From Candidatus Eiseniibacteriota bacterium (GTDB lineage Bacteria > Eisenbacteria > RBG-16-71-46 > CAVPCR01), in NCBI GenBank assembly GCA_044867365.1, contig JBIOUT010000046.1:1-33050 (forward strand): a DNA stretch of 33,050 bases, in the 5' to 3' direction. Shown piece by piece: positions 914 through 13,959 of this stretch. Each line of letters opens with the position of its first letter. Within the stretch, counting starts at the first letter, position 1. A program made the position numbers and the translations under genes. The notes under the pieces are model-generated. The model did not search any database, had not been told where the DNA came from, and saw only the letters and a list, made by a program, of their open reading frames with translations.

Positions 914-994
914 GACGGGCTCGGATCTCCCTTGTTGGGCGGCAAGGGAGGCGAAAGGGTTGCAGGCGAGCGGGCAATCTGGGAAGCTCGACCC

Positions 995-1828
995 ATGCCC
1001 ACTTCTTCGGATTGGAGGCGCGTCTTCGCGCGGAGCGTCGGCGTCGAGCACCGAGAAATGTCGCTCGACAAGGTGGCGCTTCTCATCGCTGCCGAAGAAC
1101 GCCCCGATCTCGAGATAAGAAACTATTTGAATCGCCTGGACGAGATCGGCGAGATCGTCCGCAAGCGAATCGGAAGCGAGCTCGATCCTTATCTGATTGT
1201 CGGTGTTCTCAACAAGGTTCTGTTTCAGGAGCTCGGGTTTCGCGGCAACCGGGACTCCTATTATGACGAGAAGAATAGTTTCCTCGATCAGGTCATCGAA
1301 CGGCGACTCGGCATCCCGATAACCTTGTCGATCGTCTATATGGAAGTCGCCAGGCGCGCCAAGCTGCCGGTTGTCGGGGTCAATTTTCCCGGACATTTCC
1401 TGGTCTGTTATCAGGCGGCGGACGAGCGCCTGCTCATCGATTGTTTCAGCGGCGGTGAGATCGTGCTCAGGCGACATGTGCAGGAACGGCTCGATCAGAT
1501 GTTCGACGGACGGCTGCGGTTCCGTCCCGAGTTTCTCGATCCCTCGCCGTCTCGTGCCATCATCGCCCGCCTGCTCACCAACTTGAAGGCGATCTACTGG
1601 CGGCGGAACGATTACCGGCATGCGCTGGCGGTGAGCGACCGCCTACTTCTGGTCAATCCCAACCTGGTGGAGGAGTATCGCGACCGCGGCGTCCTGCTCG
1701 CGCAGTTGCGGGACTTTGATGGGGCACTGCCCGACCTCGAGCTCTACCTGGCTCTGGCGCCCGAGGCTCCGGATGCAGCCCAGGTTCGCTGGTTGGCGCA
1801 CCGGCTGCGGAAAAAGCGCAGCAAGTAG
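995..1828 (+). CDS. SirB1/YchA-like protein (transglutaminase-like fold plus TPR-like C-terminus, UPF0162-type)
   Basis: Tracked ORF 932..1828; first ATG at 995. Core LNKVLFQELGFRGNRDSYYDEKNSFLDQVIERRLGIPITLSIVYMEVARRAKLPVVGVNFPGHFLV matches my memory of the SirB1 N-terminal family. The C-terminal helices (YRHALAVSDRLLLVNPN...YRDRGVLLAQL...DLELYLAL) look TPR-like. Start uncertain (TTG 932 vs ATG 995). Confidence 0.7.
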   Translation: MPTSSDWRRVFARSVGVEHREMSLDKVALLIAAEERPDLEIRNYLNRLDEIGEIVRKRIGSELDPYLIVGVLNKVLFQELGFRGNRDSYYDEKNSFLDQVIERRLGIPITLSIVYMEVARRAKLPVVGVNFPGHFLVCYQAADERLLIDCFSGGEIVLRRHVQERLDQMFDGRLRFRPEFLDPSPSRAIIARLLTNLKAIYWRRNDYRHALAVSDRLLLVNPNLVEEYRDRGVLLAQLRDFDGALPDLELYLALAPEAPDAAQVRWLAHRLRKKRSK

Positions 1829-1855
1829 CGATCCCGCCGGCGGAGGGAGGTGGCG

Positions 1856-2305
1856 ATGAAGACCATCCGCGGCCTTATCGAAGGCAAGGTTGTATACAGC
1901 GTTCCACCCGAGGCGAACGTGCTGGAAGTTGCTCGCTACATGAGCGAGAAGCGTGTCGGTGCAATTGTCGTCATCGAGGGGGATCAGGTCGTCGGTGTGT
2001 TCTCCGAGCGTGATCTGATGGAGCGAGTGGTCATTCGCGGGCGATCACCTGCCGATGTGCGGGTCAAAGAGGTGATGACTCGCGACCTCCTGACCGCCGG
2101 TCCCGACGAGAGCTACGTCGATTGCATGAAGAAGATGCAGCTTCGCGGTTGCCGCCACCTTCCGATTGTCGAGGGTGGACAAGTGATCGCCATGCTCTCG
2201 TTACGCGATCTCCTCAAGGTCGAGATCGAGCAGATGGAAGAGGAGATCAAATGGATGAACGCCTACATCCACGGAGTGCCGCCCGACCGCATGGAGCTGG
2301 GATAG
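1856..2305 (+). CDS. CBS-domain pair protein
   Basis: Two CBS-like units (VARYMSEKRVGAIVVIEGDQVVGVFSERDLMERVV and CMKKMQLRGCRHLPIVEGGQVIAMLSLRDLLK). Strong SD GGAGGGAGG at 1842-1850 lies 5 nt before ATG 1856 (the track starts at GTG 1850). Confidence 0.85.
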   Translation: MKTIRGLIEGKVVYSVPPEANVLEVARYMSEKRVGAIVVIEGDQVVGVFSERDLMERVVIRGRSPADVRVKEVMTRDLLTAGPDESYVDCMKKMQLRGCRHLPIVEGGQVIAMLSLRDLLKVEIEQMEEEIKWMNAYIHGVPPDRMELG

Positions 2306-2317
2306 AGCGTTCGCCGA

Positions 2318-5300
2318 TCACTTGAGAAGGATGAACTTGCTCCTCCCGATCTCCCGGGCGCCGGCCGCCATCCGCACCCAGTAGACGCCCGCCGGCACTC
2401 GATCGCCGTTCCTGCCCCGGCCGTCCCACGGGGCCTGCCAGCTCCCCGGTTCCCAGCTGCGGGACGGGAGCGCCGCCACCACCCGCCCGGCGACATCGAG
2501 GATCTCGAGGTCGACCGCTCCGCGCTCGTGGAGATCGAAGGCGATCTGAACGCTGCCTGCCGCCGGATTCGGTCGTGGCGCACCGAGGGCTGTCGCCGCG
2601 GGCACGCTGCTCGGGCCGGGATCGTTCACCGCCGTGCTGGCGACCGAGATCCCCAGCCGATAGTCCCCGGCGAGACCGGTGTCATTGACCACCACGATGC
2701 CATACCAGTCATCGACGGGGGCGGGGTAGAGCGTGTGCAGGGCTTGGGTCTCGAGCTGCGCCGCCGATCGCGGCGCCCAGTAGATTCCGTTCTCACTCTT
2801 GAAGAGCAGGAGCTTGGTATCGTCGGCGCGGGTGCGCTCGAAGAAGATGTCGTACTGGACGCCTGCCGAGAGAAGCACATCCCATACCTCGAGCACGTCG
2901 GATTCGCCGGTAGCGCGTGAGATGGGTGGATCGCCGACGAAGAGCTGATTGGCCCCGTCATCCCACTCGGTGCGACCGCTCATCCCGTAGAAATCAAAGG
3001 GGGAAACATAATAGGTGCCGATCGGATTGTGGTTGAAGTCGCCGATGACGAAATCGACCGTGCTGACCCCGGTCGATGAGGCGAGCGGATTCGAGAAGCA
3101 GGATGGCCACGCCCCCCCTGATCCTTGCTGATAGGCGGTCAAGTCCCAATCATCGCCGCTCTGCTGGCGCACGCCGACGGCGGTCCAGTAGATGTTGTTC
3201 TGGTTAAAGCTGTAATAGCCGACGGCGGGAGGGGTGATGACGCTCACGCCGCTGGCCAGCGCGACGGGCGCGGTGCAGGTCCCGACCCGTAGCGAGTAGG
3301 TGCCGGCTTGGCCGTTGTCGTTGACCACCACCACTCCGTACCAGTCGCTGGCAGGAGCGGTGTAAGTGTTGGGGACGGTCGTCTCCAGCACCCGGGAGTT
3401 CCGCCCCACCCAATAGGTGGCGCCGGGATTCCGGAACAGCATCATCCGGGTGTCGGCGGATCCGACGCGATTGAAATCGAAGGTATAAGTGGTGCCGCCG
3501 TCGAGGAAGACATCCCATACCTCGATCACGTCATTGGAGCCGGTATTGCGGGTGATCGCCGGGGCGTTGATGGTGAGCGCATCGGGGCCGTCGTCCCACT
3601 CGGTGACCGCGCTACCCGGACCGGAGTAACGATGGGAATACACGTAGTAGCTGCCAAGTGGGTTGTGGTTGAAGTCGCCGATCACGAAATCGGCGCCGTT
3701 GACGTTGCTCGAGGAGGCGAGAACGCCGCTGAAGCAGTTGTCTCCCGAGCCGCCGGTGCCCGAAGAGAAGACGGCGATGTCCCAATCGGCGACGGGGTTG
3801 CGAACCGCCGCCGCCGACCAGTAGATGGGAGATTGAGTGAAGGTGAAGAAGCCGCCGGGGGCGGGAGTGATCGCCGCGGCGCCGCTCGCCAGAACGAGCG
3901 GGTCATCGCACTGCGCTTGCCGGACCGCATTATAGGCGTCGATGACGCCCCAACCGTAGCTATTGTCCTCGCCCGCCGCCCCTTCGTCGCGGGCGGTCCT
4001 CATGAGGATTTGTTTCGCGGTCGTCACGTCGATGTTCGGATTCGCCTGTCGCATGAGGGCGATGGTTCCTGACACATGCGGGCCGGCCATTGAGGTTCCG
4101 CTCCAGCCGAACTGACCGTAGCCGCCGTTGCGAGTCGTCGAATACACGGTGACTCCGGGGGCCGAGACCTCCGGCTTGATCGTCGTGTGGTTGCAACCCG
4201 ACGGCCCGCGGCTCGAGAAGTTGGCGATCGGGTAGGGGAACTGGAAGTCGGTCGCGTTCACCGCTCCGATCGCGAAGGCGTCGGTCGGGGTGGTGATGCG
4301 ATCGGGAGGTGATCCAATGGTCTCCGCCCCCGGCCCTTCGTTCCCCGCCGAAAAGACAACCGCACAACCCGCCGCCTCGCATCCGTCCATCACCGCCCAC
4401 CACCTGGGATCACAATCGATGTAGCCGCCGGGGAAGTCCTCGTTGATTCGCCAGGAGTTCTCGACGACGTCGGGCACATCGGCGGTCGTCTGCGGATTGC
4501 CGTCCGGATCGGCGAACCACTGGAAAGCGGCGATGACGTCGTTGTCGAACTCGGCCCCGGTCGATGGGTTGCCGATCGCATTGCAGGCGATCCACTGCGC
4601 CCCCCATGCGACTCCCACGGTGTCGTGGGTGGCGGCGCCGAGGCCCACCATGGTTCCCATCGTGTGAGTTCCGTGCCCGCACACATCGGCGTCGACCGGC
4701 GACTGAGTGTTCGTCCCCAACCGATCGAGCCAGGCATGCTGCCAGGGAACGCCCGCCTGCGCCCCGCGCCAGCGGGCAGAGAGCGCCACATGCGTTCCGG
4801 TGACCCCGCTATCCAGACCGCCGACGAGTCGGCCACTGCCGTTGAACCCGAGCTCATACCAGACGCGGGGAGCGTTGATCGCCCTGAGTCCGGGGGGCAC
4901 CTGGATGGCCAGCGAGCCCCCGAGCTCCGGGCAGACCATCGGCGCCGCCATCGGCGACACGGTGAAGTTCGAGTAGACGGTGCCGACATCGGCGCGGGCG
5001 GCGACTACCCGCAGGGTGCGAACCGTCATCTTCGCCACGACCAGGTTGGCGATCCAATACGGAGTGTAGCCCGCGACCTCGCCGGTGGCTTTGAGCGCCG
5101 CGAGATCGGTGAGCAACGGGCCTTGAGTCGCCGCCGCCTTGTCGATGAGCGAAGTGATAATGGCGGCATGGCGCTCGGCGAGGGGCGCCCGCTCTTCGCG
5201 AAGCTCGGTGTCCAGGTTGGAGATCGGCGCCTGATCGGCCATCATGATCAGGATCGAGACCTTGGCGTCGTCAGGGAGCGTGCGCAGATAGGATTCGAAG

Positions 5301-5401
5301 GGCGGATCGATCATTCCCGCGTGGGCGGTGCCGGCGAGCTGGACGGAAGCGAATGTGATGAGAACGAGAGGGAGGGCAATGAATCCCGCGGCCGGCTTCA
5401 A
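2318..5401 (-). CDS. Secreted subtilisin-like serine protease (peptidase S8) with I9-like propeptide, two tandem ~211-aa repeat modules and a FlgD-Ig/T9SS-type C-terminal sorting domain
   Basis: Signal peptide MKPAAGFIALPLVLITFASVQLAGTAHA. Catalytic triad motifs GGLDSGV (D196), HGTHTMGT (H242), GTSMAGPHVSG (S436), plus oxyanion SAGNEG. C-terminal PNPAAGSVQIAFDL...VDLEILDVAGRVV...WDGRGRNGDRVPAGVYWVRM...KFILLK resembles T9SS/FlgD-Ig tails. The start is TTG at 5401, preceded by AAGGAGGT with 7-nt spacing; no in-frame ATG or GTG would preserve the signal peptide. Confidence 0.92.
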   Translation of the reverse strand: MKPAAGFIALPLVLITFASVQLAGTAHAGMIDPPFESYLRTLPDDAKVSILIMMADQAPISNLDTELREERAPLAERHAAIITSLIDKAAATQGPLLTDLAALKATGEVAGYTPYWIANLVVAKMTVRTLRVVAARADVGTVYSNFTVSPMAAPMVCPELGGSLAIQVPPGLRAINAPRVWYELGFNGSGRLVGGLDSGVTGTHVALSARWRGAQAGVPWQHAWLDRLGTNTQSPVDADVCGHGTHTMGTMVGLGAATHDTVGVAWGAQWIACNAIGNPSTGAEFDNDVIAAFQWFADPDGNPQTTADVPDVVENSWRINEDFPGGYIDCDPRWWAVMDGCEAAGCAVVFSAGNEGPGAETIGSPPDRITTPTDAFAIGAVNATDFQFPYPIANFSSRGPSGCNHTTIKPEVSAPGVTVYSTTRNGGYGQFGWSGTSMAGPHVSGTIALMRQANPNIDVTTAKQILMRTARDEGAAGEDNSYGWGVIDAYNAVRQAQCDDPLVLASGAAAITPAPGGFFTFTQSPIYWSAAAVRNPVADWDIAVFSSGTGGSGDNCFSGVLASSSNVNGADFVIGDFNHNPLGSYYVYSHRYSGPGSAVTEWDDGPDALTINAPAITRNTGSNDVIEVWDVFLDGGTTYTFDFNRVGSADTRMMLFRNPGATYWVGRNSRVLETTVPNTYTAPASDWYGVVVVNDNGQAGTYSLRVGTCTAPVALASGVSVITPPAVGYYSFNQNNIYWTAVGVRQQSGDDWDLTAYQQGSGGAWPSCFSNPLASSTGVSTVDFVIGDFNHNPIGTYYVSPFDFYGMSGRTEWDDGANQLFVGDPPISRATGESDVLEVWDVLLSAGVQYDIFFERTRADDTKLLLFKSENGIYWAPRSAAQLETQALHTLYPAPVDDWYGIVVVNDTGLAGDYRLGISVASTAVNDPGPSSVPAATALGAPRPNPAAGSVQIAFDLHERGAVDLEILDVAGRVVAALPSRSWEPGSWQAPWDGRGRNGDRVPAGVYWVRMAAGAREIGRSKFILLK
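2645..3910 (-). repeat. Intragenic tandem duplication inside the S8 protease: two ~633-nt (211-aa) modules (3278-3910 and 2645-3277)
   Basis: aa 498-708 and 709-919 align along their whole length. Examples: LASGAAAITPAPGGFFTF / LASGVSVITPPAVGYYSF; DFVIGDFNHNPLGSYYV / DFVIGDFNHNPIGTYYV; TEWDDG in both; VIEVWDVFL / VLEVWDVLL; DWYGVVVVNDNGQAGTYSLRVG / DWYGIVVVNDTGLAGDYRLGIS. The DNA is also near-identical locally (ttgtggttgaagtcgccgat at ~3024-3043 and ~3664-3683). Confidence 0.9.
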
Positions 5402-5799
5402 GGCGCAACCTCCTTATCGCAGATCTTGGGAGCTTGAGAGCTCGCCGGAGCGTGCGACTTGCTCTCTTGAAACTCGTGCGGCGTGGTCCCTGCGAGCTTG
5501 GCTTGCTCGAGTGGGGAGAGTCCCGGAGGTCCGATGACGATCGTCGACAGCTCGCGTCCCTTGACTGGCGCCGGTAGAGGCGCGAGCGGCGGGCCCAGCT
5601 CGACTTGTTCGATGAGGTCGATGAGCTTCTCGAGCTCGGCGGCGGTGAGCGCGGGAGGTCCAGGCTCGATGGTGTTGATTTCTACCTCTTTATTGGAGCC
5701 GGGCTCGTCGGTCACCAGCACGCTCGGCGCCGCGGCCAGGGCGGCGGCGCTCATGACCATCAGCAATGGGACGATGGGGAGTTGTCGGTAGTGAAACAT
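5398..5799 (-). CDS. Small secreted hypothetical protein (133 aa) with internal GPPxL(S/T)xxExxKL repeat, translationally coupled to the downstream S8 protease
   Basis: Signal peptide MFHYRQLPIVPLLMVMSAAALAAA. SD GGAGA lies 6 nt upstream of ATG 5799. Its stop TGA (5398-5400) overlaps the protease TTG start (TTGA), and the protease SD AAGGAGG is embedded in its last codons (..DKEVAP). No family recognised. Confidence 0.6.
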   Translation of the reverse strand: MFHYRQLPIVPLLMVMSAAALAAAPSVLVTDEPGSNKEVEINTIEPGPPALTAAELEKLIDLIEQVELGPPLAPLPAPVKGRELSTIVIGPPGLSPLEQAKLAGTTPHEFQESKSHAPASSQAPKICDKEVAP

Positions 5800-5900
5800 C
5801 GATCGTCTCCGATCCGCATGCGGGGGGGCTCAACACGCGTGGGTTCTCCGGTCCACCCTTCCTAACGAACGAAGGCCGGAAATCGCACGCACGATCGGGC

Positions 5901-5932
5901 GGGTTTGGAGCGGAGCGGGTTTGGAGCGGAGA
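5901..5932. repeat. Perfect-to-near-perfect 16-bp direct repeat x2 (gggtttggagcggagc / gggtttggagcggaga) in the 156-nt gap between the kinase stop and the small secreted ORF
   Basis: Read directly: 5901-5916 and 5917-5932 match at 15/16 positions. It lies 24 nt downstream of the kinase stop (5956) and about 100-130 nt upstream of ATG 5799 on the minus strand. Confidence 0.8.
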
Positions 5933-5955
5933 AAGGGCGGGTGGCGAGGGAGAAG

Positions 5956-8900
5956 CTACGCGGTGCCTGCTTCCCAGGCGGCCCGGATCTCCCGATGGAG
6001 GGGCACCTGACTCATCATCGACTCGCGGTACTCCTCTGGAGCATGGTCGCGAATGTAGATGAGGATGCGGTGAGCCTCGGCCAGGTATCGACCCTCACCG
6101 GTGAGCCTCCACAAGTTGAAGGCGACCTCCATTCTCGAGAGGGCGCTCATCTGCGAAGCGCTCGCGCTGAAGGCTGCCGCCGCCGGCGCGGGATCGTCTC
6201 GCTTGATCATGGCGAGAGAAGTCAAGGCGCAAACCTCCACTTGCGCGCTGCCGATCTCCCGGCCAATGACCAGCGCCTCTTCGAGGAGAGACGCTCCGCG
6301 GGTCGGGTCGGCTTGCATAGGATGCCGGCGGAGGAAGTCGCCATAGGTGAGGAGCATTTGAGCGTAAGCCCACCGTGTCCCATTTTTTCGTGCCATGGCA
6401 GCCGCTTCCTTGTACTCGGCGGCGGCGCGAGTCAGGTCGCCCTCGTGCTCGGCGAGTATGCAGCCGTATAGGCGAGCCGTGACTTCCCGCGGCGTCTGGT
6501 TCAATGACCTCGCCAGGGACAGGGCCGCCCTGAACGCCGTTCGAGCACGGGGATGATCGCCAAGGTAGGTGTAATACGCGGCGTTGCCGCATTCGCCGAA
6601 AAGGATTCCTTCGGCGTCGGCCATTTCGCGGGAGAGGGAGACATGCTCTTCCCTGAGTCGCATCGCCTCGGCGAATTGGCCCATGTGATCGGCCAGGAGC
6701 GACAGGTTGCCGAGAGCGGTCGCTTCCCCTTTGCGATAGCCGGTCTGGCGTTGAATGGTGAGTTGCCGCTCCCAAAGGGTTCGGGCTTCCTCCAACTTCC
6801 CCCGGCGGAACAACACCCTCGCCAGGCTGCCGCTGCCTCTGCCCTCGCCCTGGCGGTAACCGGAGCGCCGGCAAAGGGCGATCTGGCGGCGGAAGCACGA
6901 CTCGGCCGCCTCCCAGTCGCCGAGATCGACCTGGGCGCTTCCCAGCCGGCCGAGCATCGCAGCCTCGAGCTGCGGCGCTCCCGTAGCGCGCGCCAGGTCG
7001 AGCGCGCGCTCGAAGCAGTCCCGTGCCGCAGCCGGCCGTCCCTGAGTCAGATGAACGCTGCCCAGATTCTTTGTCGCCTCGCACTCGTCGGCGAGGCTCT
7101 GCACCCTGCGCGCCAAGCCGATCGCCTGTTCGCTCTCCTGAATGGCCTCCTCGTATCGACCGAGCAAGCAGTCGATCGACCCCAGGCCTGACATCGCTTT
7201 GGCTTCGAGTTCACCATGTTCCGCCGCTCGCGACAGCTCCAATGCCTGTACGAGCACTGTTCGCGCCTGCGTGTAGTGACTCCTGTCGGATAGGTATCGA
7301 CCGAGCTGGGTGCGAACGCGGGCGCGGAGAACGGCATCCCCCGTGGTCTCGGCCGTGAGGAGTGCCCTTTCGTAGACGCGATGCTGCTCCCGGTGGTGAC
7401 CGAGGATGGCGAGGTGCTGAGCCTGACGGAGCAGGAGATCGATGCGCTCGCGCTCAGGCAGGGCGTCCTCGTGCTGCAAGACCTCGCTCACCAGCGCAAG
7501 GAGCGCGGTACTGTTGAGGGTCGCTTCCAGATGCCCGACCGCGGCCTCGAGAAGAGGGAGCACTCGGTCGAGGGCTCCCCCGCGCAGGAAGTGGAGAGCC
7601 AGGTCGACCGCCTGCGCTCCGCGGATAGTTGCCGGCTCCTGCGCTGCGTCCGGCTCCCGGGCCCCCTCGAGCCTCTTCTCCAGGGACTCGGCGATGGCCA
7701 GGTGATAGGTCTGGCGCAGAGCCGGGGGGAGACCGCTGTAGATCGCCTCTTGAACATAATGGTGCTCGAAGGAATACGAGGGCTCGCCGGAGCGGAGCAG
7801 GCGGTGCGGATGCTCGAGGGCGGCCAAGCTGCGGAAGAGGACGAGTGGGGTGATCCGTCGCGCCTCTGCGATCAGCATCGGGTCGAAGCCGAATCCGCAG
7901 CAGGATGCGGTCTCGAGCACCTCCCGCTCCGCCGGGCCGAGTTGGGCGGCGCGGGCGCGAATCAGGTTCGCCAGCGTCTCGGGCAACGGAAAGTCTCGGA
8001 TCGAGGCGTGCGGATTCTGCTTCCAGCGACCGTCCGCACCCCGGACCAATTGCCCGTTTCCCTCGAGCACGCGCAAGAGCTCGAGCATCACGAAGGGATT
8101 CCCATCGGAGCGATGGACGAGCTCGCCTCTCAGCTCATCGGCGAGGATCTCCGAGCCGAGGAGGTCGGTGAGAAAGATGCGCGAGTCATCATCACTCAAA
8201 CCGCCGAGATCGATCCGCGCGGTGTGCGGAAGTCGCTCGAGCTCGCTTTGCCATTCCGCGGGTAGGTCGGAGCGTGCCGAAGCGACAAGCAGCAGCCGAT
8301 GCCCGGGAGCCGTGCGTGCCAGAACCAGAAATGCATTCCGCTCCTCTTCAGCAGCGAAATGGAGATCTTCGAGCATGAGCAAAGTGGGACGTTGGCGAGC
8401 CAGCGCCAGCGCCGTTTCGACGAGCGCAACTTGTAACGGCTCGGAGGCCGACGCCTCCGCATGCCCGTCGTCGCTGCCGCTGATGAGCGCGGCCAGCGCT
8501 TGCGCGGCGGGCGGAGCTTCGGGCAGGAGGGCGGCCAGGGCTCGGGCTGGATCTTGGCCGCCGAGGTGAGCGCGATAGGCGGCGGCGAAACCGGATAAGC
8601 TCCGCGTCTCGCTTGTTGGTGCGCTCGAGCCTGCGAGGAGATGGACTTCGTCTGCGTTTGCCGCCACCGCATCGACAAGCTCGCCGAGAAGTCGCGACTT
8701 GCCGATACCGGCTTCTCCCGTGAGGAGAACGACGCGCGCCTCGCCGTTGCACACGGCGTCCCACGCCTGAGTCAGCTTTCCCATCTCCGAGCGGCGGCCG
8801 CAGAACGCGGTCTGGGGTGAGGTGACAAGCCGGCGAGGACGAGCCGCCGTGAGGCGCGACGAGCGATCGCTCCAGAACTCCGAGCGCTCGGCCTCGGCGA

Positions 8901-10464
8901 GCACCTCCTCGAGCTCCGCCGCGGAGCGGAAACGAGCTTCCGGCTTGCGTGCCAGGAGAGTGCGAATGATCTCCTGGAAGAAGGGAGTGAGCGTGAGTGC
9001 CGCCGCATCCATCGATGGCTCTTCATCGGCGAGGACTCGACGGCGGTAATCGGCGAAATCGCGAGCGGGGTGGGGATGCTTGCCGGTCGCAAGCTCGCAG
9101 AGCATGACGCCGAGCGCGAAGAGGTCGGCGCGCCCGTCGGGGACGCCACTCTCCCCAGCCATTTGCTCGGGCGCGGCGTAGTGGAGCGTTCCCTCGCCGG
9201 CCGGTGGCTCCACGAGCTCGATGGTGCGACCGGCGCGGATGAAGACCGTCTCGGGACGAAGGTGTCGGAAGGTGCGGCCGGTGGCGTGGAGCCTGGCGAG
9301 GGCGGCGGCGATCTCTCGGCCGATGTAGCGACAAAAAGTCTCGGGGAGACGACCCATCTCGTTCTGCAGGTCGCGCAGCGACTGTCCTTGGTCATCGCCA
9401 TGCACCTCGAACGCCAGGAGGGTCGTGGCCAGAATCTCGCGCAACGCCTCAGCGCTCGGCGGCCGGTCCTCGGCTCGCTGGGCGAGGGCTTGCTCCACCG
9501 CCTCCACGACGACCGCGGGAAGATCGGGGCGCGCCTCGTGCAGTGGCACCCGTTCTCCTCGCCGGTGCTTCTCCTCCAGCTCGAGGATGGTCTTGCCGGT
9601 GACCGGGTGCCGCCCGCTCAGGAGCTGATACAAGAGCACGCCGAGGGCATACAGATCCGACGTTGCCCGGGGCGTTTCCCCGCGGAATAGCTCCGGAGCC
9701 ATCGCAATCGGCGTCCCGGTGAGGGCAGCGCCGCCGGGGTCCGAGGGATGCTCCGCAAAGAGAATGGCGGAGCCGAAATCGGCGACGATGATCCGCCCGG
9801 TCTCTTCGCACAGGACATTGGCTGCCTTGAGATCGCCATGCACGAGTCCGGCGGCATGAATGGCGCTCAACGCCCGGCAGAGCTCGATGCCGATGAGCAC
9901 CGCTTCGGCGGCCGGGAGCGTTCCCTCGGCTTCCAACCGATCAGCGAGCGTTCGACCCGGGACGAGGTCGGTCCATAGCCCCACTTGCCCGCCGTGGATG
10001 TCCGCTCCATGAACGACGAGGACATTGGGATGGCGGACCCGGGCCAGGTTCCGCGCTTCCTCGAGATTGCGGCGGGACGCGGCGATCGAACGGTCGGTCT
10101 GCCGGAGCTTGAGCGCCACCTCGCGCAGGAGGACGGTGTCCTGGGCGCGATAGATCTCGCCGAAGCTGCCGGAGCCGAGATGCTCGAGCAAGCGGAAGGG
10201 TCCCCATTGACCGAGTCCGGCCGCGGCGGTCGCGGATCCGGAGCTCGATGGCTCACCGCCGGTGGTCGCGGCCGATCGATGAGTCTGCACCGCCGATCGA
10301 TGAGCTCGCACCACCCCTTCGAGCAATTGGTATGCGGCGATGGGGATCTTTCGCCGCCCATGGCTATCCTCGACTCGGCCCCAATCGATCGAGCCTTCCT
10401 CGTCGAGAGCAGCGGCGAGCTCGAGGCGGAGCTTGTGATCGGAGTCAGGCCGAGCGCTCCTCAT
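5956..10464 (-). CDS. Multidomain Ser/Thr protein kinase: N-terminal 88-aa region, non-RD Hanks kinase domain, degenerate second kinase C-lobe (pseudokinase), AAA_16/STAND P-loop NTPase, long TPR array (1502 aa)
   Basis: Kinase motifs: LGSGSFGEIY (G-loop), VALKL (Lys), HGDLKAANVL (catalytic loop, G instead of R), ADFGSA, MAPELF. Second module aa ~365-520: RHLRPETVF, no DFG, YAAPEQ, DLFALGVMLCELATGKHPH, RKPEARF. Walker A LLTGEAGIGKSRL (aa 581-592, nt ~8695-8718) and Walker B-like TLLMLEDLH. Many ~40-aa TPR units in aa ~990-1460. ATG 10464 lies 20 nt inside the upstream sigma gene. Confidence 0.92.
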   Translation of the reverse strand: MRSARPDSDHKLRLELAAALDEEGSIDWGRVEDSHGRRKIPIAAYQLLEGVVRAHRSAVQTHRSAATTGGEPSSSGSATAAAGLGQWGPFRLLEHLGSGSFGEIYRAQDTVLLREVALKLRQTDRSIAASRRNLEEARNLARVRHPNVLVVHGADIHGGQVGLWTDLVPGRTLADRLEAEGTLPAAEAVLIGIELCRALSAIHAAGLVHGDLKAANVLCEETGRIIVADFGSAILFAEHPSDPGGAALTGTPIAMAPELFRGETPRATSDLYALGVLLYQLLSGRHPVTGKTILELEEKHRRGERVPLHEARPDLPAVVVEAVEQALAQRAEDRPPSAEALREILATTLLAFEVHGDDQGQSLRDLQNEMGRLPETFCRYIGREIAAALARLHATGRTFRHLRPETVFIRAGRTIELVEPPAGEGTLHYAAPEQMAGESGVPDGRADLFALGVMLCELATGKHPHPARDFADYRRRVLADEEPSMDAAALTLTPFFQEIIRTLLARKPEARFRSAAELEEVLAEAERSEFWSDRSSRLTAARPRRLVTSPQTAFCGRRSEMGKLTQAWDAVCNGEARVVLLTGEAGIGKSRLLGELVDAVAANADEVHLLAGSSAPTSETRSLSGFAAAYRAHLGGQDPARALAALLPEAPPAAQALAALISGSDDGHAEASASEPLQVALVETALALARQRPTLLMLEDLHFAAEEERNAFLVLARTAPGHRLLLVASARSDLPAEWQSELERLPHTARIDLGGLSDDDSRIFLTDLLGSEILADELRGELVHRSDGNPFVMLELLRVLEGNGQLVRGADGRWKQNPHASIRDFPLPETLANLIRARAAQLGPAEREVLETASCCGFGFDPMLIAEARRITPLVLFRSLAALEHPHRLLRSGEPSYSFEHHYVQEAIYSGLPPALRQTYHLAIAESLEKRLEGAREPDAAQEPATIRGAQAVDLALHFLRGGALDRVLPLLEAAVGHLEATLNSTALLALVSEVLQHEDALPERERIDLLLRQAQHLAILGHHREQHRVYERALLTAETTGDAVLRARVRTQLGRYLSDRSHYTQARTVLVQALELSRAAEHGELEAKAMSGLGSIDCLLGRYEEAIQESEQAIGLARRVQSLADECEATKNLGSVHLTQGRPAAARDCFERALDLARATGAPQLEAAMLGRLGSAQVDLGDWEAAESCFRRQIALCRRSGYRQGEGRGSGSLARVLFRRGKLEEARTLWERQLTIQRQTGYRKGEATALGNLSLLADHMGQFAEAMRLREEHVSLSREMADAEGILFGECGNAAYYTYLGDHPRARTAFRAALSLARSLNQTPREVTARLYGCILAEHEGDLTRAAAEYKEAAAMARKNGTRWAYAQMLLTYGDFLRRHPMQADPTRGASLLEEALVIGREIGSAQVEVCALTSLAMIKRDDPAPAAAAFSASASQMSALSRMEVAFNLWRLTGEGRYLAEAHRILIYIRDHAPEEYRESMMSQVPLHREIRAAWEAGTA

Positions 10465-11050
10465 CGATGATCTCTGCCAGGCGCGCCAGTGAGCGGGTGA
10501 CCCGCATGCGCGCGGCGTTGGCGGAAGCGCAACCGATCGCGCTCGCGATCTCCTGATGGCTCCATCCGAATTCCACTCTCAGGATCACCGCTTCGCGCTG
10601 GATGGGTGATAGACGGGCGAGCGCATCTTCGTAACGCTCGACCGCCTCGCGTCCGATCGCCTCCTCGAGGAGCGAAGGCTTTTGATCGGCGAGGTTCGGC
10701 GGAAGCTCGCCGGCGTGTTCCGGGGCGATCCGCGACCGGCGCAACTGGTCGCGCATCGAGTTGAGGAGGATGCGGCGAAGGTAGGCGAGGAAAGCGCCCT
10801 CCCGGCGCGGCTCGAAAGTGTCGAGTCGGGCGAGGGCGCGTACTAAGGTGATCTGGACCAGGTCATCGGTATCGCCGGGACCCCGGGCGTAGAGGGGCAG
10901 CCGCCCATGGGCCCAGGTCTGCAGGATGGGCAGGTAGCGGCGGAAGAGGGCATCGCGGGCCGGGGCATCGCCGTCACGTGCTCGCGAGAGGAGATCTGCG
11001 GTCGATTCCACCGGCGGCGGATGCCGCCGCGCGCGGGAACCCTCCACCAC
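10445..11050 (-). CDS. ECF-type RNA polymerase sigma-70 family factor
   Basis: Region 2 (DTDDLVQITLVRALARLDTFEPRREGAFLAYLRRILLNSMRDQLRR) and region 4 HTH (LSPIQREAVILRVEFGWSHQEIASAIGCASANAARMRVTRSLARLAEI). GTG start at 11050 immediately follows the TAA stop (11051-11053) of the upstream gene. Confidence 0.92.
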   Translation of the reverse strand: MVEGSRARRHPPPVESTADLLSRARDGDAPARDALFRRYLPILQTWAHGRLPLYARGPGDTDDLVQITLVRALARLDTFEPRREGAFLAYLRRILLNSMRDQLRRSRIAPEHAGELPPNLADQKPSLLEEAIGREAVERYEDALARLSPIQREAVILRVEFGWSHQEIASAIGCASANAARMRVTRSLARLAEIIDEERSA

Positions 11051-11719
11051 TTAACACCCTGGAGCGTGATGGATCCCCAGCTTGTCGAGGGCGAGCGATT
11101 GCAGCTCCTCGGCCAGCCTGAGGGTGCCGATTACGGCCTCGCGCGCCCTCCCCTGCGCCTCAGGAGTGGTGGCAAGTCGGCGGAGCAAGCGCTCGCCCAG
11201 CTGGTGATGGTAACGCTCGTCGACGTTGATCGTGTCGCGATAGAGAGCCGCGGTCTTGGCGTCTCCTCGTGATTCGCAAAGGGCGATGAATTGCGCATTC
11301 TTTACGAGCGCGATTCCCTCGCGCGCGAACTGGCCGGCCGCTACGCGCCCGACCGTATCGGTGAGCTGGTCCAGGTAGTTGAAGAGCGGAGAAAACCCCT
11401 TGGCGAAGGGGTTGTATTCACTCAGGTTGGCTCCAAGTTCGAGCAGGCGATCGTAGATCAAGCGATAATGTTTGGATTCGTCGCCCACTTGCCGGGCGAG
11501 TGCGATCTTGATCTCCGGGTCGCCGGTGAGCGGAATCCAGCGGGCGGCGATCTCGGTGGCCTCCATCTCGTTCTTGAGCGCCGCGCGAAGGAGCGCCTGA
11601 AGATCGAGCTTGGGGTCGTCGGCGCGCAGGGCCGCGCCGGGTTCGAGGCGGGCGAGAAGATCGCGCAGGGTCTCCTGGAGCTCGTCGACAAAGAGGCCGG
11701 CGCTGCTGGTCGTCGTCAT
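11051..11719 (-). CDS. Ferritin-like superfamily protein with a complete diiron-carboxylate motif set (222 aa)
   Basis: Four-helix pattern with E51/E53/E56 ... E81-S-K-H84 and E134 ... E168-R-Y-H171, i.e. two E-X(~30)-E-X2-H units. No signal peptide. SD AGGATGG lies 6 nt upstream of ATG 11719. Exact family not recognised. Confidence 0.65.
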   Translation of the reverse strand: MTTTSSAGLFVDELQETLRDLLARLEPGAALRADDPKLDLQALLRAALKNEMEATEIAARWIPLTGDPEIKIALARQVGDESKHYRLIYDRLLELGANLSEYNPFAKGFSPLFNYLDQLTDTVGRVAAGQFAREGIALVKNAQFIALCESRGDAKTAALYRDTINVDERYHHQLGERLLRRLATTPEAQGRAREAVIGTLRLAEELQSLALDKLGIHHAPGC

Positions 11720-11794
11720 GAGTCCATCCTAGCAGCGGGGGCAGGCGGCGGCCACCAGGACACCGCCCCAAGGAGGAGGCTCGACTTGGGCCGC

Positions 11795-12343
11795 ATGATC
11801 GCGCACAATGCGCGCATGAGACTTCCCATGCCTCGAATCGCTGTTTTGTGCCTGGGCGCGGCCCTGGCCCTGAGTTTGGCCTGCCACAGGAGCGGCGTCA
11901 GCTCCACGACCACCACCACCACTACGACCGAAGCTACGCAGCCGGGGCAAGCCCAGGAGCCTGCGCAAACGGCGGCGATCCCCGAGATCACCTACGAGCT
12001 CACCGGCGGGATCGCCGGGTTCCAGCTCCGTCTTCACATCGATCGCGAGGGGATGGCAAAGGTCTATGATCGGGGAAACCCGGTCCGTGGCGGCCAGCTC
12101 AGCGCCCAGGACTGGCAGGATGTGCAAAGGCTCGTCGATGCGGCGGAGCTTCCGGCGCTGGCCAGGACTTATGGGCGGGATGGGGCAGTGGTCGATGCCA
12201 TGCGCGAAGTGGTGACGGTCGAAAGCGGCGACAAGTTCGTGCAAGTGGCGGCGGTGACCGATCCGTCGGAACAGCCTCCCCAGGGGTTTGTCGAATTGAC
12301 TCGCCGCCTCATGGAGCTTACCAACACCCTGCCTCCTGACTGA
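11795..12343 (+). CDS. Lipoprotein with poly-Thr linker and a GGIAG-containing globular domain (possibly emfourin-like)
   Basis: Lipobox LALSLAC, then SSTTTTTTTTEATQPGQAQEP linker, then ITYELTGGIAGFQLRLHIDREG...LSAQDWQDVQRLVDAAELPAL. The tracked ORF 11291..12343 is over-extended antisense into the ferritin-like gene. In-frame start candidates are TTG 11786 (5 nt after AAGGAGGAGG), ATG 11795, ATG 11816 and ATG 11828. Confidence 0.7.
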   Translation: MIAHNARMRLPMPRIAVLCLGAALALSLACHRSGVSSTTTTTTTTEATQPGQAQEPAQTAAIPEITYELTGGIAGFQLRLHIDREGMAKVYDRGNPVRGGQLSAQDWQDVQRLVDAAELPALARTYGRDGAVVDAMREVVTVESGDKFVQVAAVTDPSEQPPQGFVELTRRLMELTNTLPPD

Positions 12344-12352
12344 CGGATCGAT

Positions 12353-13957
12353 ATGGTCGTGCTCACGTCTCCCGCCGTCCTTCCGGCCACCGAGCCCGAG
12401 GTGCGGCTGATCAACTGCTTCGACCGCCCGCTCGACAATGCCATTGCGGCGGCGCGCACCTGCTACTCCTCCCGCGGCGTGGTGACCCCGGAGGAAGTGG
12501 CGGGGGATGGGCTCCCGGAAGCGGAGCGGAAAGAGCGCGCCGAGCGGCGGAATGCTCTCGCTCGCGATCTCTATCGGGCCGGTCACCACACGACCTTCCA
12601 GCACGTTCATCTCCAGTATGTGCTCGATCGCGTGTCGAGACAGTTCATATGGTCGTTCCTGCATGCCCATCCCTTCTACAACTCGGAGCAGGTGAGCCAG
12701 CGATATGTCGAGGTGAAGCCGGATGCCTTTTATGTGCCGCCGCTTCCGGAGGCGGCGCGGCAGCGCTACCTCGAGGTGGCGCGGCGGCAGATCGAGGACT
12801 ATCAGGCCCTGGCAACCGACCTCGAGCCGATCGTCGCCGCCGAGTTCTATCGCATCTTTCCGGCGCGCTCCCGGCAGCCGGAGCGCTGGGCCAAGGCGAT
12901 CGAGAAGCGGGCGCTCGAGGTCGCGCGTTACGTTCTTCCGGTCGCCACCCTGTCCCGCCTCTATCACACGATCTCGGCGATAACCCTCCTGCGCTACCAC
13001 CGCCTCGCCGCCCAGTACGACGCTCCCTACGAGCAGCGGCAGGTCGTGTCGAAGATGGTGGAGGAGCTGCTGCGGGTCGATCCCGCTTACGCCGAGGTGA
13101 TCGATGATCCCATCGAGCTCGAGGAGACGCTCGAGCATCGCTTTTATGCGGCGCACCAGGTGCCGAGTCCCGCCGATCATCGCGCCTTCGTCCAGGAGTT
13201 CGACCGTGAGCTCGACCGCCTCACGTCACGGCTCATTGCCCGCAAGGAGGACAACGAGTCGGTGCTCGCAAGCTCGGTGCGCGAGGTGCTCGGTTTGCCA
13301 CGGGGCCAGCTCGACGACGACGCGGCGATTACTCTCGTGCTCGATCCGGCGCATAATCGCTATCTCGGCGATTCGCTCAACCTGACCACTCTCTCCAAGC
13401 TGTCGCGCTGTCTCGTTCATCCTTCGTACACGTTCATGAAACGCCTCAGCCATGCCGCCGACTCACAGGATCAACGGCACCGCGCCACCCCCGCGAGCCG
13501 CCCTTGCCTTCCCGCCTATCTCGGACACGATCCCGACGCGGTGCTGCCGGTCTTGGTGAGAGCCGACGAACGGGTGAGGCGCCGCTACGAAGACAGCCTG
13601 GAAGCCACCTGGGAAGGGATTGCGGCGGTGCGCAAGCTCGGAGCGACGGCCGAGTTCGCGGCTTATCTGCTGCCCAACGCGGTGGCGATTCGATTCACCG
13701 AGTCGGCCGATCTTTCCGGGCTCTGGCACAAGCTCGAGATGCGCCTCTGTTACAACGCCCAGGAGGAGATCTGGCAAGCATCGGTGGACGAGGCCCGACA
13801 GATCGCGGCGGTGGAGCCTCGGATCGGCAGTCACTTGCTACCGCCCTGCACCGTTCGGCTGCGGGCGGGCACCCGTCCCATTTGCCCCGAGGGCAAACGA
13901 TTCTGCGGGGTGCGCGTTTGGGACCTCCCGGTTTCCGCGTACGAGCGGCTCATCTAG
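12353..13957 (+). CDS. Long (534 aa) divergent ThyX/Thy1-like protein (FAD-dependent thymidylate synthase family), apparently two-lobed
   Basis: N-half: RTCYSS, GHHTTFQHVHLQY, RVSRQFIWSFLHAHPFYNSEQVSQRY (a ThyX RHRx7S..RY-type motif with HAH in place of RHR). C-half: SHAADSQDQRHRATPASR (RHR present) and LEMRLCYNAQEEI. Family call from motif memory only. Confidence 0.6.
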   Translation: MVVLTSPAVLPATEPEVRLINCFDRPLDNAIAAARTCYSSRGVVTPEEVAGDGLPEAERKERAERRNALARDLYRAGHHTTFQHVHLQYVLDRVSRQFIWSFLHAHPFYNSEQVSQRYVEVKPDAFYVPPLPEAARQRYLEVARRQIEDYQALATDLEPIVAAEFYRIFPARSRQPERWAKAIEKRALEVARYVLPVATLSRLYHTISAITLLRYHRLAAQYDAPYEQRQVVSKMVEELLRVDPAYAEVIDDPIELEETLEHRFYAAHQVPSPADHRAFVQEFDRELDRLTSRLIARKEDNESVLASSVREVLGLPRGQLDDDAAITLVLDPAHNRYLGDSLNLTTLSKLSRCLVHPSYTFMKRLSHAADSQDQRHRATPASRPCLPAYLGHDPDAVLPVLVRADERVRRRYEDSLEATWEGIAAVRKLGATAEFAAYLLPNAVAIRFTESADLSGLWHKLEMRLCYNAQEEIWQASVDEARQIAAVEPRIGSHLLPPCTVRLRAGTRPICPEGKRFCGVRVWDLPVSAYERLI

Positions 13958-13959
13958 CG

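Follow-up and report, generated by a model that had tools for sequence, protein, structure and literature searches.

Which genes of a tightly packed run belong to one regulatory system, and which merely stand beside it? This question is raised by the 33,050-nt contig JBIOUT010000046.1 of a Candidatus Eiseniibacteriota bacterium (assembly GCA_044867365.1), called the window below, in which five adjacent genes code for a ferritin-like protein, an extracytoplasmic function (ECF) sigma factor, a Ser/Thr kinase, a small secreted protein and a subtilase. An earlier note on this DNA had read all five as one undescribed signalling-to-secretion system. We consider it probable that the system is instead a four-gene island, in which the ECF sigma factor and its translationally coupled cognate Hanks kinase would control the small secreted protein and the subtilase. 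All five minus-strand open reading frames (ORFs) were present where the earlier note had placed them, and their shared strand, their domains, all four junctions and the single gap were borne out by the ORF coordinates and the sequence. The main features are:

11051-11719, minus strand: ferritin-like (DUF455-related) protein of 222 aa with weak DUF455/Ferritin matches below cutoff, a backbone neighbour

10445-11050, minus strand: ECF sigma factor of 201 aa, Sigma70_r2 and Sigma70_r4_2

5956-10464, minus strand: Ser/Thr kinase of 1502 aa, Pkinase, AAA_16 and TPR_12/TPR_MalT, with zero predicted transmembrane segments

5398-5799, minus strand: small secreted protein of 133 aa, a signal peptide and two EISTIEPGPxxLTxAELEKL-like repeats

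2318-5401, minus strand: secreted subtilase of 1027 aa, a signal peptide, an S8 domain, two repeats of about 210 aa and a FlgD_ig-type C-terminal domain

2306-11050, minus strand: the four-gene island with the genes for sigma factor, kinase, small secreted protein and subtilase, an indel by comparison with related genomes

The junctions are tight. Read from the sequence, the TAA of the ferritin-like gene (11053-11051) abuts the GTG start of the sigma gene (11050), and the kinase gene begins with its ATG (10464) before the sigma gene has ended with a TGA at 10447-10445, so that the two genes share 20 nt (10445-10464). The small ORF and the protease gene are joined by a TTGA at 5401-5398, and a Shine-Dalgarno sequence (AAGGAGG) lies inside the small ORF, 7-13 nt upstream of the protease TTG. 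The sole gap in the run measures 156 nt (5800-5955). No plausible extra ORF that might encode an anti-sigma factor was found between the five genes, and the earlier observation that no anti-sigma gene is adjacent held for the window, in which the sigma gene is flanked by the ferritin-like gene and the kinase gene only. A standard scan of 1800-12600 for sigma70 promoters and terminators gave no promoters, and terminator-like sites occurred at chance level.

The sigma-kinase pairing recurs far beyond this contig. The sigma factor has 3733 homologues, and a census by pattern scan, with one genome per GTDB species, yielded at least 508 relatives, from which 80 loci were kept for neighbourhood analysis. 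Their hosts are Candidatus Eisenbacteria, Acidobacteriota (Thermoanaerobaculia, Holophagae, Polarisedimenticolia), Krumholzibacteriia, Gemmatimonadota and the cultured gammaproteobacterial genus Marinicella, and multiple copies per genome are common. A Hanks kinase domain followed the sigma gene on the same strand after 170-440 nt in 68 of the 80 loci; four of the 12 loci without a downstream kinase were cut by contig ends, which leaves 68 of 76 informative loci. Of these 68 loci, 55 have an in-frame kinase start that overlaps the sigma stop by 4-20 nt, a count biased upward by choosing the candidate start nearest to the sigma stop, and the 20-nt overlap of the window matches this range. In Marinicella litoralis the pair stands alone between putA and the cox genes, which indicates that the unit consists of the two genes. 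A metagenome scan with the sigma protein returned only three distant loci (52-58% identity). Gene order across these genomes argues that sigma factor and kinase are a true conserved pair, so that the proposed link between the STAND/TPR kinase and the ECF sigma factor was upheld as a pairing.

The sigma factor is an ECF protein with sigma2 and sigma4 domains only (Sigma70_r2 49 bits, Sigma70_r4_2 42 bits). It also matched PF07638 (30.7 bits, cutoff 21.1), a family that is not equivalent to ECF43, and TIGR02937 (77 bits, cutoff 42.9), and the closest curated model was that of the planctomycete subfamily TIGR02984, at 90.8 bits or half of its cutoff of 183.75. Its ECF domains, the conserved kinase neighbour and the lack of an anti-sigma gene in the window would place it in the general class of kinase-associated, anti-sigma-less ECFs. 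This class is an established category, comprising ECF43, ECF59, 61, 62, 217, 267 and 283 (Casas-Pastor et al., 2021, PMC7826278). Direct sigma-factor phosphorylation was demonstrated for EcfP/PknT of Vibrio parahaemolyticus and EcfK/PknS of Xanthomonas citri (PMC8999054, PMC13147305). Both pairs belong to ECF43, the only kinase-linked group with a demonstrated mechanism: the acidic DxxD motif is replaced by uncharged QTTA or STTA, and the sigma factor is switched on by phosphorylation at position 3 (PMC8999054, PMC13147305). The remaining kinase-linked groups retain an acidic motif resembling DAED, in or near which a Ser or Thr sometimes occurs, and their mechanism is unknown (PMC8999054).

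The comparison with ECF43, on which the earlier note had leaned, fails on precisely this defining motif, DTDD here against uncharged QTTA:

10862-10873, minus strand: region 2.2 motif D60-T61-D62-D63 of the sigma factor, from alignments the DxxD contact for the RNA polymerase beta' subunit

The motif is acidic at positions 1, 3 and 4 and has its Thr at position 2. It aligns with DVDD of CnrH (PDB 4cxf), which suggests that DTDD is the DxxD contact to the beta' subunit. In an alignment of 30 family sigma factors T61, D62 and D63 were invariant within [D/E]TDDLVQ, as was a WAHGRLP motif, and the xTxD pattern was present in 114 of the 120 closest homologue clusters. A Ser in the linker between sigma2 and sigma4 (S126) was near-invariant (at least 90% conserved); EcfK has its linker phosphosite at T106 (PMC8999054, PMC13147305), so that a conserved linker Ser/Thr is shared with ECF43. 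Further likenesses to EcfP-PknT and EcfK-PknS are the position of an ECF sigma gene beside a Hanks-type Ser/Thr kinase gene with no anti-sigma gene, the single-pass receptor form that the kinase usually takes in both families, and a local output that can be a secretion- or surface-related gene set (the type VI secretion system for EcfK). Unlike ECF43, the kinase of the window has a family-specific N-terminal helical module and a cytoplasmic pseudokinase-STAND-TPR arm in place of a transmembrane sensor. ECF59, 61, 62, 217, 267 and 283 resemble the window's family in kinase linkage, the typical lack of an anti-sigma factor and the retained acidic motif. By their descriptions, on which this comparison was made, these groups come from Planctomycetes, Actinobacteria or Proteobacteria, whereas the family described here has its centre in Eisenbacteria and Acidobacteriota and is represented among the Proteobacteria by Marinicella. 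For ECF267 a FecR-like gene was reported, whereas the Marinicella member L064 has the sigma-kinase pair without one.

The kinase is built from four parts:

10261-10464, minus strand: N-terminal family-specific helical module (aa 1-68), from the conserved pattern and AlphaFold2

9415-10209, minus strand: catalytic Hanks kinase domain (aa 86-350) of the non-RD type, with VALK, HGDLKAAN, DFG and APE

8830-9387, minus strand: degenerate second kinase-like lobe (aa ~360-545), the second Pkinase stretch

5959-8805, minus strand: AAA_16 (STAND-type) NTPase (aa 554-727 and beyond), then MalT-like TPR repeats to the C-terminus

Pkinase matched with 159 bits over two stretches. The second lobe has FRHLRPE in place of HRDLKxxN and no DFG, keeps APE and aligns to the C-lobe of other family kinases, so it is likely a pseudokinase; a degenerate second lobe is also common to proteins of the L040, L002 and L095 type. 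AAA_16 matched at residues 554-727 (64.4 bits, cutoff 32.6) with a Walker A motif GEAGIGKS and a Walker B motif LLMLED, TPR_12 scored 100.6 bits and TPR_MalT 42.8 bits, just under its cutoff of 45. STAND NTPases are marked by a P-loop domain that has both Walker motifs and leads into a repeat-based sensor arm, and the kinase appears to be one of them. It shares the AAA_16 P-loop, both Walker motifs and the MalT-like TPRs with STAND/TPR proteins of the MalT/AfsR type and with the TOMM kinase/cyclase model TIGR03903, which aligned to residues 550-1115 at 264 bits, far under its cutoff of 705.75. Different from these proteins, the arm is fused to a Hanks kinase and a pseudokinase and paired with an ECF sigma factor, and there is no cyclase or DNA-binding output domain.

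A typical kinase of the family has about 600 aa and is a single-pass receptor with one hydrophobic segment near residue 340-390. Unlike most of them, the kinase of the window contains no hydrophobic 19-mer, and it appears to be a rare cytoplasmic form in which pseudokinase, AAA_16/STAND and TPR arm replace the membrane and sensor half. The pseudokinase-STAND-TPR arm was present in 2 of the 80 family loci, and a separate search for full-length homologues gave a few dozen proteins (33-44% identity), mainly from Eisenbacteria and Planctomycetota. The catalytic loop reads HGD in 54 of 69 family kinases and HRD in 9, so the family is mostly non-RD, which suggests that these kinases are not controlled by phosphorylation of the activation loop. 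A non-RD majority is unusual among bacterial Hanks kinases. All family kinases start with an extension of 55-109 aa that carries the pattern L..A..IAD..PVDW...L..L....A.A.R. The AlphaFold2 model of this N-terminal module (mean pLDDT, the predicted local distance difference test, 87) has helices at residues 8-21, 28-34 and 42-68 (pLDDT 75-88) and a disordered linker at 71-81, and by sequence the module gave only chance-level matches in Pfam and the PDB.

How could such a pair work? In this genome the sigma and kinase genes are probably transcribed by read-through from the ferritin-like gene, because there is no gap, terminator or recognisable promoter before the sigma gene. The STAND-TPR arm would sense a cytoplasmic ligand or partner and switch the kinase. 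The kinase may dock onto the sigma factor by its N-terminal module and would control it post-translationally, most likely by phosphorylation of the invariant Thr61 in DTDD, of the conserved linker Ser126, or of both. Active sigma factor would then initiate at a promoter-like site in the 156-nt gap (5864-5888, described below), and initiation there would lead to expression of the small secreted protein and the FlgD_ig-tailed subtilase.

The main rival of control by sigma phosphorylation is that the kinase carries its own anti-sigma factor. The N-terminal three-helix module would sequester the sigma factor, activation of the kinase, through autophosphorylation or STAND oligomerisation, would release it, and phosphorylation of the sigma factor would not be the switch. 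A sigma factor with an intact DxxD should be intrinsically competent and would need such restraint, and the window holds no separate anti-sigma gene. Against this reading, the module shows no sequence similarity to a known anti-sigma domain or Pfam family, and with ~60 residues it is shorter than class I anti-sigma domains. The typical layout of the family kinases, in which the helical module lies in the cytoplasm and a single transmembrane segment at ~340-390 leads to a domain on the outside, with a disordered linker between module and kinase, agrees with a tethered anti-sigma module; however, the invariant Thr in DTDD and the conserved linker Ser suggest that the sigma factor is itself a substrate. 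We regard the embedded anti-sigma factor as rather unlikely.

What the pair controls can be approached from the genes that travel with it. The subtilase matched Peptidase_S8 over the full profile (138 bits, positions 1-288 of 288), and the motifs GLDSGV, HGTHTMG and GTSMAGP of its Asp-His-Ser triad are all intact, by which it is predicted to be catalytically active. Its C-terminus passes the cutoff of FlgD_ig (PF13860, 29.2 bits, cutoff 27), whereas the sorting-domain models of the type IX secretion system (T9SS) stayed under theirs (PF18962 20.5 against 27; TIGR04183 17.1 against 23), and this 33-kb contig contains no T9SS genes. The small ORF had no match in Pfam or NCBIfam, and its family, whose members have the two repeats in common, has only 6 representatives among 1.84 billion proteins. 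It was also considered as a single-pass anti-sigma factor and rejected as such: the sole hydrophobic segment, at residues 8-25, is signal-peptide-like and has nothing cytoplasmic before it.

Small ORF and subtilase recur beside the two closest orthologous sigma/STAND-kinase pairs, L002-L004 and L095, so that of the secreted output proposed earlier the two genes stood, and of the T9SS tail a FlgD_ig-type domain is left. The related loci are arranged as follows:

L002-L004: sigma factor 71% and kinase 43% identical; divergent from the pair, genes for an S8-FlgD_ig protease (47%) and a homologue of the small ORF (49%), and downstream of the kinase a second small ORF and an FG-GAP-FlgD_ig protein

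L095: sigma factor 69% and kinase 44% identical; the same divergent S8 gene and small ORF, and a FlgD_ig protein downstream of the kinase

L096: kinase 39% identical; two FG-GAP/FlgD_ig genes between sigma factor and kinase

L097: kinase 37% identical; an FG-GAP gene nearby

With the S8 proteins of L002 and L095 the protease of the window shares 47-48% identity, and over its C-terminal 540 aa it shares 56% with the FG-GAP protein of L002. At every locus inspected, among them L002, L095 and a JGI contig, the small-protein gene is coupled to one that encodes a large FlgD_ig-tailed protein, in either gene order: the small gene precedes the S8 gene in the window (2318-5799) and follows it in L002 (925-4184, minus strand) and L095. 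Since the small gene is also paired with one for an FG-GAP protein that is no protease and has only the C-terminal repeat and FlgD_ig module in common with the S8 protein, the partner of the small protein is probably this module rather than the protease domain.

The earlier note had allowed for an internal promoter in 5800-5955, and a conserved promoter-like motif does lie there:

5864-5888, minus strand: bipartite motif resembling a promoter, GTGCGATT-N11-TTCGTT, ~65 nt upstream of the ATG of the small ORF

Motif discovery on the regions orthologous to that upstream of 5799, as the earlier note had proposed, gave this motif in the window, L002 and L095. Its consensus, GTGCGRTT-N11-YTCGTT, was obtained by comparing intergenic regions, and in a 7-sequence alignment of these regions GTGCG..T and TCGTT were the only invariant blocks. 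The window contains exactly one exact match. L002 and L095 have three copies each, upstream of the S8 gene, the downstream secreted-protein gene and the kinase gene; these are exact or have one mismatch, and the copy before the kinase, in the sigma-kinase gap, is of the one-mismatch kind. All copies in the window, L002 and L095 are intergenic and point into a secreted-protein or kinase gene. By our own estimate, chance would give about 0.07 exact matches in the 1.41 Mb of locus sequence retrieved. With a 12-nt spacer, two more exact matches are present in unrelated loci of the family, of which the one in L020 lies ~100 nt upstream of a 1075-aa FlgD_ig-tailed ORF. L070 also has an exact motif, with high-GC ORF noise around the downstream gene, and it was not counted as an independent site. 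In 80 loci not used for the derivation a relaxed core matched 8 times, whereas shuffled sequences gave 1.3 matches; 6 of the 8 lie downstream of the sigma gene and on its strand. The layout, a -35-like block, a spacer of ~15 nt and a CGTT -10, is typical of ECF promoters, and the motif is a candidate target that this sigma factor may read.

Several points weigh against the proposed four-gene system. Firstly, the support from the family is sequence support, and what it says about mechanism is inferred from that. Secondly, with the acidic DxxD intact, the charge restoration of ECF43, the only kinase-control logic so far demonstrated, cannot apply. Thirdly, only three related lineages supply the seven strong motif sites, some of which had served to derive the motif, 3 of the 6 same-strand relaxed-core matches fall inside the kinase coding sequence, and near the sigma-kinase pair of the more distant STAND-kinase loci L096 and L097 the motif is absent. 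Moreover, among the wider-family loci the small ORF was found in 0 of 80 and an S8 gene in 2 of 80, which limits the association to the closest clade. Lastly, the motif does not stand upstream of the sigma genes, and no autoregulatory motif was found upstream of the family sigma genes that would tie motif and sigma factor together.

Many Eisenbacteria loci of the family (L021, L023, L053, L057, L060, L072, L085 and others) have a TTGA(A/G)-N~19-TAGCCT element 40-110 nt upstream of the sigma start, which is probably the form of the housekeeping promoter in this phylum. Sigma genes that lack the bipartite motif and often have sigma70-like sites fit a sigma factor that is made constitutively and controlled after translation. 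L005 (10001-16941) offers a further version of the module that is linked to a protease: after a family sigma-kinase pair, whose kinase has TPR and DUF4384, comes a TPR-CHAT protease-like gene of 1077 aa, and the next large gene has a copy of the motif with one mismatch (17014) upstream.

Control of an ECF sigma factor by a kinase is understood only for ECF43, where it works through a restored acidic contact to RNA polymerase. The present pair points to a large, apparently unstudied kinase-linked ECF family with an intact acidic motif and a novel N-terminal module on the kinase. This family is useful in three ways: an invariant Thr sits within its retained acidic motif, a conserved uncharacterised N-terminal module is common to its kinases, and the cultured Marinicella members allow experiments. 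The copy in the window would be the rare cytoplasmic STAND form with a small local regulon. The window, which combines a cytoplasmic kinase of the STAND type with a single candidate target promoter and a single operon for a secreted protease, is also a compact system to test. A broader idea, which we put forward as speculative and on present evidence doubtful, is that the family represents a third kinase-to-ECF wiring. Its kinases would be anti-sigma/kinase hybrids, in which the N-terminal module is a new sigma-binding domain that holds a DTDD sigma factor competent for core binding, and the sigma factor is released or tuned through phosphorylation of Thr61 or Ser126. The sensor half would be freely exchangeable, a receptor ectodomain or a STAND-TPR arm, and a lineage-specific GTGCGRTT-N11-YTCGTT promoter would stand before secreted FlgD_ig-tailed proteins.

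The fifth gene remains to be placed. In the earlier reading the ferritin-like diiron protein gave an iron, O2 or redox input to kinase and sigma factor, and the five genes formed one unit. Its two ExxH motifs are consistent with a diiron site, and the abutting stop and start, with no terminator between, make co-transcription with the sigma gene probable in this genome. The match to Pfam DUF455 (24.0 bits) is below the gathering score of 34.3, and close homologues carry precomputed PF04305 matches. However, the protein belongs to one widespread family (2907 homologues, 60-82% identical across several phyla) with its own partner, Transglut_core2-TPR_9, and a ferritin-like gene was found within 10 kb of the sigma gene in 0 of 80 sigma-family loci, nor is there one at the closest orthologous loci L001, L002 and L095. 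The co-occurrence of ferritin-like, ECF, Ser/Thr kinase-AAA_16-TPR and S8 genes, a search for which the earlier note had suggested, thus breaks down at its first member.

Related chromosomes show where this gene belongs. L008, a 574-kb contig of a relative, encodes a ferritin-like protein 75% identical to that of the window, and blastn aligned the two over Ppx, Transglut_core2-TPR_9, CBS, ferritin-like, lipoprotein, thyX, nucleotidase and GNAT genes. The spacing from the ferritin-like gene (window 11693-11055) to the CBS and transglutaminase (TGase) genes (window 2289-977) is 78 bp in L008 and 8.77 kb here. The ferritin-CBS adjacency recurs in 4 further related contigs, whose ferritin-like proteins are 73-82% identical to that of the window, so that five related contigs have the ferritin-like and CBS genes immediately side by side, and sigma, kinase and protease genes are all missing from between them. 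From this adjacency, and from the absence of the ferritin-like gene from the sigma-family loci, it follows that the four genes at 2306-11050 (~8.7 kb) are an indel island between two backbone genes, ferritin-like and CBS. The island borders have no flanking repeats, GC content and GC at third codon positions (GC3) match the host, and the island has no mobility genes. Synteny indicates that the ferritin-like gene is part of the conserved chromosome backbone and not a component of the module. The start-stop coupling to the sigma gene is real in the window, is conserved at no other locus and is not a conserved functional link. The five-part reading is largely refuted by synteny, and we consider it very improbable. 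There is a caution in this: by abutting start and stop codons and a common strand, a backbone gene passed for a component of the system, until synteny across relatives removed it.

That the block is instead an anti-phage or conflict system of the PD-T4-6/Avs type, with STAND kinase and protease as its parts and the sigma factor incidental, is hardly credible. In its favour, defence systems often contain STAND NTPases, the four genes form an indel island, and the kinase domain matches the PADLOC models PD-T4-6 and mad6 (up to 272 bits) and the protease a PADLOC subtilase model. These matches, however, span no more than the generic catalytic domains of kinase and S8 protease. In the 68 of 76 informative loci an ECF sigma factor is coupled to the kinase, which mostly is an ordinary receptor that lacks the STAND arm. 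The signal peptide of the protease and its surface or secretion tail mean that it is not a cytoplasmic effector, and the island is of native composition without mobility genes.

The ferritin-like gene and its partner deserve a note of their own. In distant phyla the Transglut_core2-TPR_9 gene directly follows the ferritin-like gene, and the two form a conserved pair there, often with a gene for an M48 peptidase-TPR protein as well. They adjoin in L009/L010 (8001-9485), whereas in the lineage of the window the CBS gene stands between the ferritin-like gene and Transglut_core2-TPR_9 (window 932-1828). They are an uncharacterised conserved pair in their own right. Upstream of the ferritin-like gene (window 11720-11830) a TAGGAT hexamer resembling a -10 element ends ~6 nt before the ATG, and its closeness to the ATG suggests a leaderless or near-leaderless transcript.

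Beyond the ferritin-like gene the coding strand changes, with a lipoprotein gene (11828-12343, plus strand) and thyX (12353-13957, plus strand), and the rest of the contig holds housekeeping genes. A 483-aa ORF at 11729-13180 (minus strand) was tried as a sixth operon gene and found spurious, as it has no family match and overlaps thyX and the lipoprotein gene on the opposite strand; the gene run therefore stops at 11719. The lipoprotein gene, divergent from the ferritin-like gene, encodes a lipobox LSLAC followed by a poly-Thr linker and was hidden within a longer ORF in the plain ORF list. thyX is of double length, 534 aa with two Thy1 stretches, and it is long in relatives too (547 aa in L008, 539 aa in a JGI contig), which suggests a tandem or fused ThyX. 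At 13504-16374 (plus strand) a Metallophos/5'-nucleotidase and an AmiA-like amidase lie in one ORF, whereas L008 has two genes, of 543 and 321 aa; the single ORF may be a gene fusion, a lost stop codon or an assembly error.

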